A stretch of 62,986 nt of DNA, counting the filler, from Platydemus manokwari (taxonomy: Eukaryota): assembly GCA_037951405.1 (NCBI GenBank). It is 6 parts of 6 records of this genome, joined end to end, with 100 filler letters (N's around TTAATTAATTAA, not from the genome) between each part and the next. Parts side by side here need not be neighbours in the genome. Positions count along the whole stretch, not along the records: positions 10,041 to 20,410 come from JBBMOY011139328.1; 5 more parts are not named here. One strand, given 5' to 3'. A program made the position numbers and the translations under genes. Position 1 is the stretch's first letter; each line of letters opens with the position of its first letter. Below the pieces are notes generated by a model, which saw only the letters and a program-made list of their open reading frames with translations, made no database searches and was not told the origin of the DNA. Positions 11,430 to 17,600 of this stretch are shown here, one piece after another.

Positions 11430-12440
11430 TTGAATGTTATCTGTCATTTCTCCGAATATTTGTATCTTTTTGCTTATTATTGCTCCATAAATATCATTTA
11501 GCTAGTCTCTCTGCAACACATTCATTTCCTATATTATCTTATTGATCGTTCGGGCTCCCTTGATATCTTTTGCGGTAAAGATCGGTAAGGCTTTCATATT
11601 TTTCTTCAAATCCTATCCGAAAATGATTTTTCCTATTAATAGTTCAATAGCTATTCTGCTGATCTCCTTATAATCCGTTGTCCCTGTGACTGCGTATTCC
11701 CCAAATCCGTTCTTGGTAACACAATGATGCTTCATCTCCCTTGGGCAACAAGTTTGTTTCAGAATCACTTTCCTTCTATAGTCCTTTATACTTATCCAGA
11801 TCGAGTATCATTTCCCGTTGAAATCTATTGCGTACTTCACATCAAGATAATTTGTAAAAAACCTTTCTTTGTATTAGTTGATATCATCAGGCTTTATTAT
11901 AAACGACATGTGGTTTTTAGGTTCACTAAACGTAAGTTGGTTTGGGCTATTCGTGTGAAAAGGCTCTGCCTCTCTGAATTTTACAATTTTCTCTGGTTCG
12001 GGTCTGATGTACTCTATTATAATTGTATTTGTTTAGCTCTGACGATCATATTTCTGAATTCCGTTTGGTGGTATTTTAATGGTGTGAGGTAAATGGATGC
12101 GGATGAGAACGTTTCTAGTTCAATCATCTAATTTATGCACTTGATTGAAATATCTGATTGTGCACTGTAAATGTTAATCATTGGCGGGTTTAAAGTTAAT
12201 TTCAGGGTTATATCTCCTAATCCGAAGCTGTTCCGCTCCTGAGAGTGGATGACTATCGTTATTCGTAGTTGATGGGGTGCCAATTTTAATTTATTGAGCA
12301 GATTTGTTATCTTCTCAAATGTTCGTCTTCCTATTCTAGGTGGAGTTTTCTTTTTTCGGACTTAATTCCTGCATATAAACGGCGTGTAAAATATTGAATG
12401 ATTGTTGTCAAATGTTCCCTTACTGGTAAATACAGGGTTA
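11430..12440 (-). pseudogene. Decayed coding sequence of unknown function, probably the continuation of the retroelement ORF beyond the Rep cassette
   Basis: A-rich sense strand like the gag region. Protein-like segments are broken by stops and frameshifts: TLYLPVREHLTTIIQYFTRRLYAGIKS, PRIGRRTFEKITNLLNKLKLAPHQLRITIVIHS, HCVTKNGFGEYAVTGTTDYKEISRIAIELLIGKIIFG. Confidence 0.5.
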
Positions 12441-12522
12441 ATAATATAAAAAAATTATTATAAGTTACTTGAATGACTATTGATTGAAATTTTTTGAACA
12501 AAATAATGAACCTTTAGGGTCA

Positions 12523-12620
12523 TTTTTATATGTTTACAGCATTCGCGAATGGTTCCTTCCCCCAATTTCAAAGGGGGCCCCTCACAGTCGCTGCGTTCCC
12601 GTTCGCTTCGTGTAAACGAA
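12523..12620 (-). promoter_or_regulatory. Candidate promoter of the Rep cassette: TATA box plus upstream GC-rich palindromes
   Basis: Minus-strand TATAAAAA at 12530-12523; perfect palindrome CATTCGCGAATG at 12540-12551; CCCCC-9nt-GGGGG hairpin at 12559-12577 overlapping GGGGCCCC at 12574-12581; TTCG-TGTAAA-CGAA hairpin at 12607-12620. Confidence 0.45.
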
Positions 12621-12965
12621 CACCAAGCACTTATAATTTTTTTTCGTAAAGGAAATATGTGTGTAAACGAAATCAATGAGATGATTCGAGCAGGAGACGG
12701 CAAGAGCACAAAAATAATAACACAATAATATCTGTGTAATAAATAAATATCTATGTAGGTGTGTAAGTGTGTAACATAATTACACCTTATCGAGTGTAGT
12801 ATAGCACAGCACAGGCAAATAATATTCTCTCTACGCTGCACAGGTAATCCTATAATATAATAATTGCACAGCACTGATAAAATAGTTTTAGGCTACACAA
12901 CTGTGTAATTGCACAGATGATGACTCATTACACTGAAAACAATATCTATGTAACTGTGTAAACAG
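12610..12965. repeat. Cluster of short direct and inverted repeats (candidate iterons and replication origin)
   Basis: GTGTAAACGAA at 12610 and 12661; AATATCTRTGTA at 12727, 12746 and 12941; TAATTGCACAG at 12861 and 12906; hairpin GTGTAA-CATAA-TTACAC at 12769-12785; near-palindrome CTGTGTAATTGCACAG at 12901-12916. Confidence 0.6.
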
Positions 12966-12971
12966 CTGACA

Positions 12972-12977
12972 TTTAAT
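12972..12977 (-). terminator. Candidate polyadenylation signal (ATTAAA) of rep
   Basis: ATTAAA on the minus strand about 20 nt after the Rep stop codon. Confidence 0.4.
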
Positions 12978-12997
12978 ACATATATTTGAGTACAACA

Positions 12998-14621: not shown

Positions 14622-14674
14622 TCTGATGCGTATACTGATGGTTTGATATTGGCAACTGAATATGGCGCCATCAT
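14022..14674 (-). CDS. ORF-Y: 190-aa hypothetical protein overlapping the Rep N-terminus in another frame; exons 14674-14530, 14488-14237, 14197-14022
   Basis: Starts at aaaatcATGATGGCG. Removing the same two introns as Rep gives a stop-free 573-nt frame (MMAPYSVANIK...SQIAKLTSMGF...LTG|RHNQARSRILSS...MPH|DHYYCSP...SDSQFL) that ends over Rep motif I. Confidence 0.6.
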
Positions 14675-14682
14675 GATTTTGA

Positions 14683-16253
14683 TTGCCAGATTGATCAGTA
14701 TGATCTTGGCTCTTGATGCGGTTATTTCGTCTTTAATAATTTCTCATAGTACGTTTTCTGTATCAACAGTTTTCTGTTTCTGTCGAATCCAAGGCATATA
14801 TCTGCCTATGTCGCTAAGTAATTTTTCATAACCTTCGGTGGTTAATCCCGTTAAGCATTGATTGTAGGGATCAATCCCTTTCGCTATCCTTATCGGACAT
14901 CGTTTAGAATTTATAGTCGTGTCGTCCACCAGTCCTCGTAGTAACTGTGCTTGTACTGCTGGTGCGACCTTGAGTGTCTCTATTTTGACGCTTTCGAGGT
15001 GGTCCACGAGTATTTTGTGTTGGCAAAACTTGTGGCTCTGACTCTGGAGGAGCGTTTTCTGCATCCCGTTTAGTTTCATCATAGTTCCGATTAATTGCCA
15101 TAGCTGTGGATCGAAGTATGACCGGCTCTGGTGACGGTGGAGGTGGTTGTGTATCATACTCTGGCTGGTATTCCATAATTTGAGAGGTTTCTTTGTGTGT
15201 CCTCATCCAGGTCTAGTGGTAACTGTGTCTCCACTCTCCCCGTTGCTGGCTCGATTTCTGCCTCCATCATTTGGATTCCGCTGGCGTTGTTAATACCTTC
15301 ACTACTGTAACGAAGCCTGGTAGGCAATCTACGTCAACTAAATATTCGTCATCATCTACCGGATTCGACTGAATTGTGATGATGAACGGCTCCGTGATTG
15401 ATTTCTCATGTCTGATATCCAGCCTTAGTCGGGTGAAACAAGAGTTTGTCTTTAGCCAATTTCCGTGATGACTGGTCCGAATGTGTAGCGTGAGCATCGG
15501 TGCTCTTTGCGGTTGACTCCGATTGGCTAGCCCATTTCGTTGTAGGAGTAACTGTACTTCCTTTCGGTAAATGGGTCCCTTGTCCAAGAGTTCAACCAGT
15601 ATTGGTGCGGCAGCAGCCAATACATCGGTAGGTATAGTAGCGTAAATGTGATTGTTTAATAAACTCTTGATCATTTGTTCGTCTGGAGCGTTCCTTTGAG
15701 CTTCCCTTACTAAGTTGACGGCGAACTGCGTCAATGTTGTGTGTTCCTCAGTGGTTAGTTCGATTGTCGCGAGGACATTTTCGGCGGTAATTACTCGTGT
15801 TAGATTTTGTTTAGTTCCTATTGCAGTTTCCTTGGGGATCTCTTCGATTTCAAGCATATCTAATACCTTGGTATTATCAGCTTCTTCTTCATATTCGTTA
15901 TATGCGTATGTCTTCTCACGGTGCATGACAATCGGTGATAGACATGGGGTTTGCAACTCATTGGTGGCATCTGTTTGTTCTCTCGACGGGGTGAGTCGCA
16001 TGTAATTATTCATTTTAGCTGTCAGAATAGCCCGTGCTTCTTCTAACCTGTGAATCAATTTCGGATAATTAGTGGAGCTGCTTGAGCTGATGCCACTAGT
16101 CTGAGCATATGAATGGTTCAATGAGGGTTGATATAATTCCCTCTTCTGATAGCCTCTTGATAGACTAAACAGTGTTCGCGTAGATGCTTTTATTGGCTTT
16201 GTCGGTTCTCTTCCTCCAAATATTCGTGTTCCAATTGTTGCATCCTTGTCCAC
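14683..16253 (-). pseudogene. Long decayed ORF of unknown function downstream of gag (ORF-X)
   Basis: A 328-aa open segment (15267-16253) is followed by frameshifted Pro/Glu-rich segments (MMEAEIEPATG..., QPPPPSPEP...) and RCPIRIAKG...TENVL*EIIKDEITASRAKIILINLA. No D[ST]G protease, YxDD RT or integrase motif was seen. Confidence 0.6.
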
Positions 16254-17336
16254 CCTTCGTATCCTGGCGGAGTTTGAGATATCATGACTTTTTCAGCCTT
16301 TGGCTTATTGGTTGCTTGATTGCTGGGGCAAATGGCATGCCCAAATTTCCCACAAGTAAAACACTTAATATTCCCTTGAGTGCTTACTTCGTTTCGTTCC
16401 ATTGTAAACGCAGCCGATTTGCAAATTGATTCAAAGTGTCCCTAGCGGTTACACTTGGCACACTCTAGTCCCCGAAGTGTGCATTCAGATGTGGCGTGAG
16501 TATCGACTGAGCAGTGCTGACATTTGGTTTTGTTTCCATCAAGGTCATTGCTGGCCCTGCAGTCTTTAGTGGCGTGATTATTCCTTCGGCAGATGGCGTC
16601 CTGGTGTCCCATTTCGGTTAGTCCCAGTTGAATTGCCATTGTCATGATTTTGAGTGTAATTGCTTCGATTTTGTTTTGGTTTTTGAGGCTTGGCTTCGTA
16701 CGTTGCGCAGATTAGTTCTCTATTGCCTTGTCAATTTCAACTAATCGGGCTTTCTGTACTAGCTTGTCAAAATTGTCCCCCATATAGAGGCTTAAACTGG
16801 CCCTAATGTGAAGCAAGAACCCCTCCCATAGGTGATCCTTTACATTGTTGCGAGTGTCCTGCGGCCAACCGTTTTGGGCTCCAGAAGCGCGCTCGGCTAG
16901 CAAGGTAAGTTAGTGAGCAAATTCACCAACATGCTCTCCTTGTTGCTGCTTGCTGTCTGAATAAGTGTCCTATATCGATGGGTAGGATTTGCGTCCAAAG
17001 TGCTAACGAAATGCGGCCCACTGCCGTGGTGGTGCTGGTGCGTTCATCATAGAATTGTATTTTTCTCTGGCCATCTCTGTTAAGTAGATTGGCACTCGTT
17101 TGATCATTCGTTCCTGGTTGATGCCGTAGGCATCCGAGAGCTGGTAGTAGTCCGACATGAACTCGTGATAAGTTCCTGGATCTCCATTGTATGGCTTTAT
17201 GTTGAGCTTTACATTTGGCTCATAGTCTCTTGGTGCACGTTCGGTTGCACGTTTGGGTTCAGTAACCCCGCTGGCTGAATGACTGCGGTTTGAGTTGCTG
17301 GTCTGGTACCTCTATCTCTGGTACTTCTTCTTGCAT
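16190..17336 (-). pseudogene. gag: Ty3/gypsy-like gag with four zinc knuckles, inactivated
   Basis: One frame reads KLNIKPYNGDPGTYHEFMSDY, VPIYLTEMAREKYNSM, QWAAFR*HFG and MHR-like KQQQGEHVGEFAH*LTLLAERA. It then gives knuckles (D)AICRRNNHATKDC, CQHCSVDTHATSEC, CAKCNR*GHFESIC and CFTCGKFGHAIC. In-frame stops at 17005, 16972, 16912, 16714 and 16444; the N-terminus is frameshifted. Confidence 0.88.
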
Positions 17337-17460
17337 AATGCTGGTAGTGAGTGACGATAATCACGTGGGGATCACAAATTTGTGGAGTTCTCGTAACTCG
17401 AGAGTTGAGCGGTTCTGTAGCAATCTGACTCCAAAGGATTGCGGATACTAGCACTTACTA

Positions 17461-17600
17461 CTAGCACTTATGACAACTTATGTAATAACAACACAAGTAT
17501 TGAGTTCAAAATATTTATTGTTTGATATAACAGGTGTACAAGCTGAATAACAATTATCAACGTACAATCAGTGTACGAGGTCAATAATAAATAATGAATT
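17461..17600 (-). mobile_element. Remnant 5' LTR end and degenerate primer-binding site
   Basis: Minus strand: AATAAA (17519-17514), then TGTTATTACA ending at 17481, a 2-nt spacer, then AGTTGTCATAAGTG. This matches 11 of 14 positions of the tRNA-Leu-type PBS TGGTGTCAGAAGTG. The outer LTR boundary and a second LTR were not found. Confidence 0.55.

Follow-up and report, generated by a model that had tools for sequence, protein, structure and literature searches.

Layout of the locus

The locus lies in the genome of Platydemus manokwari (Eukaryota; GCA_037951405.1). The window analysed, a stretch of 62,986 nt made of 6 joined parts, is a chain of contigs of about 10 kb with N spacers, and the locus is located inside one contig (10041–20410, JBBMOY011139328.1). 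On its minus strand, the contig carries an LTR-like end, gag, ORF-X and ORF-Y/Rep. This is the order given by the first-pass annotation, which had considered a single hybrid element. The gene order is real; the single unit is not. Three pieces make up the stretch: a decayed member of a Ty3/gypsy-like family with many copies (14666–17590, minus strand), a CRESS-virus Rep cassette (12507–14665, Rep on the minus strand) and a separate decayed repeat (11400–12506, minus strand) with an ORF of its own and at least two related contigs. The GC content is 0.44–0.47 in gag, ORF-X and Rep and 0.25–0.29 in the flanks. Rfam provided no match.

All evidence on copies comes from contigs of one run (X1), probably the source of the window itself. 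Its read depth is not usable as copy number and its contigs cannot show absence. One X1 contig spans 11395–14712 with 0 differences and crosses the joint between Rep and ORF-X by 47 letters. By this contig and the AT-rich flanks, the viral Rep is joined directly to host chromosomal sequence. A CRESS Rep does physically adjoin a Gag element, as the annotation expected under either of its readings.

The Gag retroelement

The Gag element starts with an AT-rich, LTR-like 5′ terminus of ~150 nt (17440–17590, minus strand; GC 0.31). It is followed by a PBS-like motif with a TGG start (17424–17433, minus strand), which may resemble a tRNA-Leu PBS; a tRNA partner was not matched, the window having no tRNA. 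A full partner LTR was not found in the contig. The best match within 10041–17250 is a 50-nt piece at 14492–14541, and this partial repeat is all that was seen in the way of paired LTRs and a target-site duplication. Copy 1 of the imperfect repeat (17536–17588, minus strand) includes a 34-nt GT..AG stretch (17576–17543). Copy 2 overlaps predicted intron 1 of Rep, 125 nt inside the cassette. The repeat was first picked by eye. None of 500 dinucleotide shuffles and none of 316 real tiles reached its score of 38. On the other strand, a higher score came from 1 of 200 plain shuffles.

The Ty3/gypsy-like gag (16193–17336, minus strand) covers a capsid region and up to four CCHC-like knuckles, counted by eye, and has 5 in-frame stops. 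A search yielded 76 matches (best E 1.8e-45), with Retrotrans_gag and zf-CCHC in the homologues; P0001 shares 33% identity over 361 columns. By this homology, the product is a Retrotrans_gag-type Gag with capsid and CCHC knuckles, in agreement with the initial assignment. The reported lack of pol also held: a scan of 16 ORFs showed no family of reverse transcriptase (RT), protease or integrase. Past 14666, where the sister copies go on, the family may well have pol.

ORF-X (14666–16292, minus strand) had been described as a separate ORF of its own. By alignment, it is the C-terminal continuation of the Gag polyprotein, with frameshifts, and is cut at 14666. A separate gene is ruled out because one homologue of 997 aa, P0023, aligns with gag and with 15671–15291 (E 2.7e-6). 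The alignment score of P0023 with ORF-X, 123, was reached by 0 of 1000 shuffles. A helical and a ubiquitin-like domain are located at ~15290–15670. The ubiquitin family match in P0023 (E 0.0046) and a ubiquilin UBL match obtained with a 3-row profile (E 0.046) are both below the curated cut-off. P0041 is likewise a long Gag of ~1000 aa with the helical and ubiquitin-like domain; its relation to ORF-X goes via P0023, as the direct comparison was not significant (648 of 1000 shuffles; 70 of 1000 for P0001). No significant alignment was obtained between the tail of ORF-X and the end of P0023 (47–64 of 1000 shuffles). A word-seeded search with ORF-X among longer proteins found no match, and a model folded without alignment was dropped (pLDDT 39). 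Other metagenomic proteins share this extended Gag and its ubiquitin-like domain; no description was found in the open literature searched, and Repbase-type catalogues or subscription journals may contain the family.

The copy is dead. The stops noted earlier were recovered, five in gag and one at 14744–14746, the latter being the single stop between ORF-X and ORF-Y, together with 5 frameshifts counted by eye. Among the matches listed, sister contigs differ in three of the five stop codons of gag and in codon 14744–14746. These stops are lesions of this copy, since the sisters read other letters there. The family is large, because at single places in gag and ORF-X variant letters come from 9–11 different contigs among the matches listed.

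The capsid type, CCHC knuckles, LTR-like end and many sisters resemble Ty3/gypsy (Metaviridae) elements. Unlike these, the copy has neither pol (PR-RT-RH-IN) nor a second LTR, and its Gag of ~1000 aa has the helical and ubiquitin-like domain. Gag-only TR-GAG elements also combine gag and LTR-like ends with a lack of pol. They are described as a single gag ORF between paired LTRs, <4 kb in total (PMC4350172), whereas the copy here is cut at 14666 and has no second LTR.

The Rep cassette

The cassette encodes a CRESS-type Rep on the minus strand (12998–14621), predicted to have 500 aa from four exons. A long low-complexity N-terminus (~190 residues) precedes an HUH nuclease and an SF3 helicase. 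Motif II is H-M-E, motif III is YCSKE (13809), and the helicase has Walker A, Walker B (13363), motif C (13234) and an Arg finger (13168). An environmental CRESS Rep profile matches two ORFs (E 2e-15 and 3e-5), and the predicted fold resembles circovirus and nanovirus Rep. Motifs, profile and modelled fold identify the predicted protein as a CRESS Rep, as first proposed. Profile positions 11–149 precede predicted intron 3 and 176–301 follow it; the fusion of the Y1 HUH nuclease with the SF3 helicase rests on this intron. In motif II, the first His is retained and the third position is Glu, versus Gln in ≥90% of 17 aligned rows.

The relatives are distant. The closest share 24–37% identity over longer matches. 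No CRESS family can be named because identity to the 50 listed structural matches is only 12–25%. In a word-seeded search among longer proteins, the nuclease and helicase parts had no match at E 1e-3 or 1e-2. The helicase part had no match among IMG/VR loci, and locus searches with the nuclease part returned short motif matches (2 loci and 2 loci).

The cassette frames had been called clean. This applies with three predicted introns removed; raw, there are two stops and one frame change. Predicted intron 1 (14489–14529, minus strand; 41 nt, GT..AG) contains the stop of the ORF-X/ORF-Y frame, intron 2 (14198–14236, minus strand; 39 nt) the sole stop of the Rep frame, and intron 3 (13471–13511, minus strand; 41 nt) divides Walker A. 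All three frame breaks coincide with the only three AT-rich GT..AG candidates in the 1668-nt coding part; gag and ORF-X have 1 such candidate in 2675 nt. The filter, AT ≥65%, was chosen after the introns were seen. Host introns in the window have 43, 43, 48, 58 and ~94 nt, with AT contents of 0.78–0.88 versus 0.68–0.77 in the predicted Rep introns.

ORF-Y (14022–14674, minus strand) is a second frame, open through predicted introns 1 and 2. Counted from its ATG inside the retroelement part, at 14674, it has 190 codons; the next ATG is at 14566. ORF-Y has 0 stops per exon, the third frame 6, 12 and 3. The chance of 186 open codons is ~4e-5. A weak UBA match lies in this frame at ~14540–14590 (E 0.008–0.03). 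No homologue of ORF-Y was found in Pfam, PHROGs, NCBIfam, PDB and 22 viral loci. The frame at 11410–12299 also had no match in these sources, which thus revealed no capsid gene; remote capsids would escape this search. Both the introns and the overprinting by ORF-Y are predictions; they would be features of a virus using host short-intron splicing. Spliced Reps are on record for arthropod CRESS genomes (PMC6186406).

The non-coding 3′ part (12507–12997) has a putative poly(A) signal, ATTAAA, at 12977, a 26-nt direct repeat (12741/12936, 85%) and a 12-bp palindrome at 12545. A weak hairpin candidate at ~12559–12577, with a 5-bp stem and a 9-nt loop, was the best of 6 strands folded (z −2.2; 5 of 200 shuffles). 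A TAATATT-like loop at ~12820 folds no better than shuffles. The canonical nonanucleotide ANTATTAC has 21 matches in the window, none in 10041–20410, and NANTATTAC was not found in the contig.

Circovirus- and nanovirus-type CRESS viruses (PDB 7kii, 6h8o, 8h56) share the nuclease fold (target TM 0.75–0.77 for 7kii and 6h8o), the YxxK motif III, Walker A/B, motif C and the Arg finger. The locus differs in its motif II, and neither a capsid gene nor NANTATTAC was found there. Replitrons are eukaryotic genomic Y1 Reps related to CRESS Reps; they are without helicase and bounded by short terminal direct repeats (Craig 2023, PMC10288648). The Rep here has an SF3 helicase, and no short direct terminal repeats were found at 12507/14665 among the repeats listed, so a Replitron was rejected. 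A Helitron, with Y2 Rep and SF1 helicase, was rejected on the one Tyr in motif III and the SF3 motifs.

The joint and its origin

The joint (14632–14700) has its breakpoint between 14666 and 14665. A perfect palindrome of 10 bp and an imperfect fold-back of 34 nt are both centred on it. The fold-back has 19 of 35 columns identical and an arm length picked by eye. Its symmetry is the best of 4340 centres at arm 34, in the top 0.5% at 45 and ordinary at 20 and 60. Perfect palindromes of ≥10 bp number 4 in 12400–17600, the joint among them. As ssDNA, the fold-back is not more stable than shuffled sequence (z 0.3 and −1.1).

Five sister contigs exit ORF-X at 14666 (agreement 0.94) into one common sequence (X1), which matches nowhere in 12300–14900 and is neither Rep nor the 11400–12506 piece. 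In this one run, none of the sisters enters Rep, which contradicts the hybrid reading. On the far side, the 11400–12506 ORF has 10 stops in 296 codons and no match in Pfam, PHROGs, NCBIfam and PDB. At least two contigs resembling 11740–12506 (~83% alike) cease matching at 12506; one extends 789 letters further, into sequence not among the listed matches. A resumption of the same element in the decayed DNA at 12440 is not supported, and the piece was rejected as a continuation of the Gag element, the onward letters of the ORF-X sisters being absent from 12300–14900. For this reason, and because the 11740–12506 relatives stop at 12506, simple nesting fails. The lean of the annotation towards a younger insertion into a dead retroelement still fits. 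Neither a joint of 12506 to 14666 nor one of 12507 to 14665, as in a circular form, was among the X1 joints listed; contigs cannot show absence or settle circularity.

The stack of three pieces was most probably joined in a single event, in which DNA repair took up viral DNA at a break within dead repeat sequence. Rather than a new hybrid element, the locus is likely a unique junction between two genome parasites that are not related. The starting point would be a decayed, 3′-cut copy of the many-copy Gag retroelement. A Rep cassette, intact apart from three predicted introns, would have entered the break as DNA, because the introns and ~470 nt past the putative poly(A) signal are kept and a poly(A) tail is absent. 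The fold-back at 14666 suggests a repair-made joint. The exit of the ORF-X sisters at 14666 and the stop of the 11740–12506 relatives at 12506 speak for capture. At the lesion rate of gag and ORF-X, zero lesions in the cassette have a probability of ~4e-4 for both frames and ~2e-3 for Rep alone. The cassette would be younger than the gag decay, unless selection held Rep. That ORF-X continues in frame into ORF-Y would be coincidence; stops further upstream prevent this run from being translated from gag. Against capture count the 50-nt repeat linking the LTR-like start to intron 1, which chance adjacency does not explain, the in-frame joint followed by a weak UBA match, a potential partner of the ubiquitin-like domain in ORF-X, and the similar GC of gag, ORF-X and Rep relative to the flanks.

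A one-off capture by the retroelement itself is unlikely. RT would have switched from element RNA to co-packaged unspliced viral RNA, the cassette replacing the 3′ internal region. Chimeras from LTR-mediated retroposition have foreign sequence replacing part of the internal ORFs (Tan et al. 2016, PMC5131818), as here. Both parts are on the same strand and in frame, and the viral part starts ≤44 nt before the Rep ATG. However, the locus differs from these chimeras: the predicted introns are retained, the cassette extends well beyond ATTAAA, and the far side lacks an LTR or other element DNA. Equal ages would be expected, yet decay is confined to gag and ORF-X.

Equally unlikely is a domesticated Rep, an old viral gene under selection and spliced by the host, in front of which a Gag element landed later, perhaps as promoter donor, and decayed. 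Intact exons, host-sized predicted introns, the lack of a close viral relative and the unusual H-M-E agree with this. Little drift towards host composition is visible, however: GC3 is 0.42–0.52 in the cassette versus 0.33–0.34 in host eRF1, the introns are less AT-rich, and the overprinted frame is virus-like.

Slightly less probable still is a true Gag-plus-Rep lineage. Here, an overlapping spliced Rep would replace pol, and a polyprotein of capsid, knuckles, ubiquitin-like domain, UBA and ORF-Y would package DNA copied by rolling circle; the locus would be a relic of recombination with a resident family. The 50-nt match leaves this lineage a small chance, together with the in-frame joint, the domains on its two sides and the similar GC. 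Two further X1 contigs have short Rep-like patches (joints at 13357 and 13417). Beyond the contig of the locus, X1 covers 12561–14648 by short patches at ~13257–13430 and ~14040–14126, from contigs that cannot show absence. The exit of the sisters and a dead gag beside a clean Rep are at odds with such a lineage. A pattern search of IMG/VR and GTDB found no Gag relative, and 22 loci around other CRESS Reps had no Gag or ORF-X match. The Rep profile had no match in 81 Gag-like proteins (best E 0.37), a test reaching fused Reps and not adjoining separate Rep ORFs. If true, the lineage would tie the capsids of retroelements to replication by rolling circle; the literature search returned no such combination. 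An assembly chimera at the repeat boundary is very improbable: unique DNA meets a many-copy repeat at the joint in a stretch present in one run only, but the X1 contig, possibly the window's source, bridges 14666 without a difference.

Capture, the preferred explanation, has precedents. Rep-only endogenous circoviral elements, some with retroelement flanks, are reported (Dennis et al., 10.1101/207399). Carnivore endogenous CRESS elements flanked by retroelement sequence and a truffle Rep-plus-transposase composite are likewise described (Liu et al. 2011, PMC3198968; 10.1101/207399). Like these elements, the locus has an HUH and SF3 Rep in host DNA without capsid. Unlike those described there, it has three predicted introns of 39–41 nt, of which one interrupts Walker A, and also an overprinted frame across two of these introns and the low-complexity N-terminus; its neighbour is a Gypsy-like Gag and not a non-LTR element, with no sign of co-amplification. 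As read, the locus is a fossil of a divergent CRESS lineage and not a new class. A Rep with three host-sized predicted introns and an overprinted gene points to nuclear replication in a small-intron animal.

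A long, decayed Gag

The window is a chain of contigs of about 10 kb each with N spacers between them, and the finding lies within one contig (10041-20410, minus strand). The gag frame (17311-16193) contains five in-frame stops. With the stops entered as X, the frame matched 76 proteins up to E 0.001, the best being the stored Gag-like protein P0001 (1.8e-45). At E 0.001, Retrotrans_gag was detected in 9 of 22 scanned gag homologues and zf-CCHC in 14. ORF-X gave no match in searches run with ORF-X alone. One of 81 stored proteins, P0023 (997 aa), matched both gag and 15671-15291 (E 2.7e-6; score 123, 0/1000 shuffles). 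The same P0023 region matched the Gag-like P0041 (score 120, 0/1000 shuffles) and, weakly, ubiquitin (E 0.0046) and the ubiquilin UBL (E 0.046). Since P0023 spans both regions, gag and ORF-X are, on sequence comparison, what frameshifts have left of a single long Gag that has a predicted helical domain and a probable ubiquitin-like domain. The first-pass annotation had treated ORF-X as a separate long unknown ORF; it is part of Gag. Its report that pol is missing beside Gag and Rep was borne out, as an ORF scan of the locus revealed no pol family.

The last 168 residues of P0023 showed a weak Bcl-2 family match (profile positions 35-100, E 0.019, below the cut-off; sponge BHP2, E 0.68). No Bcl-2-type match was seen in the ORF-X tail of the window. 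Ubiquitin-like plus Bcl-2-like domains on one Gag would, if true, be an odd architecture. A Gag with a ubiquitin-like domain was not found in the listed titles and abstract openings of open-access papers. Another stored protein, P0031, has a Gag followed by what by eye resembles a signal peptide and then an envelope-type region rich in Cys. At 18200-19100 (minus strand) lies another decayed, many-copy coding stretch with a strong strand skew and no Pfam match.

A CRESS-type Rep with predicted introns

A motif scan had picked up environmental loci, and a profile made from their Reps matched 14211-13474 (profile positions 11-149, E 2e-15) and 13504-13001 (positions 176-301, E 3e-5). The third-best of 1356 window ORFs reached E 0.96. 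The protein shows motif III, Walker B, motif C and the Arg finger; in motif II it carries Glu in place of the Gln of most aligned Reps. The predicted nuclease model (pLDDT 71) resembles circovirus and nanovirus Rep structures, with 12-25% identity to CRESS Reps among the matches listed. By profile and motifs, the predicted protein is a CRESS-type Rep to which no family is assignable. In environmental CRESS loci (L002, L009-L011, L013, L016 and L017), the Rep ORFs span 429-510 codons from stop to stop, and long stretches lie ahead of the nuclease. These stretches are like the predicted N-terminal extension of the cassette, which had no sequence match to them.

Read raw, the cassette (12507-14665) has two stops and one frame change. 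Introns were sought as GT[AG]..[CT]AG of 30-70 nt with at least 65% AT, an AT threshold chosen after the introns were spotted. On the coding strand of 14700-12990, exactly three candidates were obtained, at 14529-14489, 14236-14198 and 13511-13471 (all minus strand). Each covers one frame break, and Walker A is interrupted by the third. In gag/ORF-X (2675 nt) this filter returned one candidate, and on the opposite strands four and one. By an exon-by-exon count, the predicted spliced Rep frame runs for 500 codons from 14621 without an internal stop. The second frame, ORF-Y, stays open for 190 codons across predicted introns 1 and 2, and the third frame has 21 stops. Both cassette frames, initially described as clean, are so only after removal of the three predicted introns. 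Of the initial Gag-Rep observation, the identities of gag and Rep and their order stand; the clean raw frames and the separate ORF-X do not.

Judging from the window, the host appears to be an animal with AT-rich DNA whose introns are short. An eRF1 gene (36229-37650; Pfam E 1e-44) and a gene identified by eye as casein-kinase-1-like (46666-47760) served as intron references only. Their introns are short (43, 43, 48, 58 and ~94 nt, boundaries set by eye from conservation). A 46-nt GT..AG stretch (12423-12468) heads the ORF of the left repeat (11400-12506) and is possibly an intron of that repeat's family.

The predicted three-intron, dual-frame Rep cassette is, with the long Gag and an unexplained 50-nt repeat, a main attraction of the locus. 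A three-intron CRESS Rep was not found in the listed titles and abstract openings of open-access papers. Spliced Reps are on record (PMC6186406), Replitrons are without helicase (PMC10288648), gag-only TR-GAG elements are known from plants (PMC4350172) and Rep-only endogenous CRESS elements are the closest known (PMC3198968; 10.1101/207399).

Sister copies, age and origin of the joint

Copy evidence came from contigs of one public run, X1 (79% of the words of the stretch). X1 is probably the source of the window and therefore gives no independent support. On the 10.4-kb contig lay 1302 X1 contigs. Among the best 40 rows listed, up to 9-11 different contigs had a variant letter at single places of gag/ORF-X. 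Three of the five gag stops and that at 14744-14746 are among these places. As sisters read other letters there, those lesions belong to this copy. Within 12300-14900, five X1 contigs track ORF-X to 14666 and then continue into one common sequence (agreement 0.94) found nowhere in that stretch. One contig bridges the joint (14666|14665) with 0 differences over 11395-14712. On the left, X1 contigs about 83% like 11740-12506 end matching at 12506; one has 789 more letters not listed as matching. Summed depth was 15-28 over 11425-14538 and 113-904 over 14539-17652, which gives no copy number; the case rests on the contigs present. Short patches of Rep (13257-13430 and 14040-14126) are matched by two other X1 contigs, one of them colinear across 683 nt, so the genome probably has diverged relatives of Rep at other places. 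Short stretches at 11079-11424, around 17433 and at 20075-20410 lie under very abundant X1 repeats.

Gag/ORF-X carries six stops in 839 codons and five frameshifts (counted by eye); the predicted exons of the cassette have no lesions. This upholds the decay contrast initially noted. At the gag/ORF-X lesion rate and the same age, a lesion-free cassette has a chance of 4e-4 to 2e-3, so the cassette is younger than the gag/ORF-X decay or under selection. GC3 is higher in the cassette (0.42-0.52) than in host eRF1 (0.33-0.34), which favours the younger age.

A stacked insertion through DNA capture is the reading we consider most likely, with fair confidence. Beyond the observed identities, order, sister departure and decay difference, we infer that a break took up DNA of a CRESS-type replicon that relied on splicing in this host. 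The capture would remove the 3' end region of a dead Gag copy or abut it. Retention of the predicted introns, ~470 nt beyond ATTAAA at 12977 and the lack of a poly(A) tail point to capture of DNA rather than RNA. The LTR-mediated retrocopies described so far lie between two stretches of element DNA (PMC5131818), unlike this locus. Some circoviral elements are reported to have non-LTR retrotransposon sequence on their flanks and were probably amplified along with it (10.1101/207399).

The sisters fix the position of the joint independently, and a perfect 10-bp palindrome is centred there, 12400-17600 having four of these. Of 4340 centres, the joint ranks first for inverted symmetry at arm length 34 and is ordinary at 20 and 60. 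The left joint (12506) showed no such symmetry in the same test. Fold-back filler is familiar from end-joining repair; with arms only ~55% identical, the fold-back is only a hint of repair.

That Gag and Rep form one hybrid element is improbable, as the five sisters leave ORF-X at 14666 into other common sequence. In its favour, the best internal repeat of the stretch joins 17588-17536 to 14541-14492 (score 38, next 30; 0/500 dinucleotide shuffles, 0/316 real tiles). This repeat may be what is left of a 3' LTR, an intron-like piece common to both places, or a coincidence picked out by eye. Beyond the joint, the frame has a weak UBA match (E 0.008-0.03; PDB gave no support), which would suit an upstream ubiquitin-like domain, and GC is alike in Gag, ORF-X and Rep. 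Under the capture reading, the match of the ORF-X and ORF-Y frames would take the right frame, a one-in-three chance, and, if ORF-Y starts at 14566, 33 more open codons (P 0.17). The listed titles and abstract openings of open-access papers yielded no Gag-plus-Rep element. In the LTR-like start, a 34-nt GT..AG stretch (17576-17543) resembles predicted intron 1 including its donor context. Simple nesting, with ORF-X resuming at 12440, is not supported at either end: the sisters leave 14666 into sequence nowhere in 12300-14900, and the left contigs stop at 12506.

Other features of the window

At 53062-53787 lies an ORF of 242 aa that has a RING finger at its N-terminus and shows no introns. Near it, the segment 52727-52993 recurs in inverted orientation, 74% alike, at 57177-57443. 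Among direct repeats, 22923-23279 pairs with 26613-26955 and 25583-25745 with 26313-26469; these are old duplications with 71-72% likeness.
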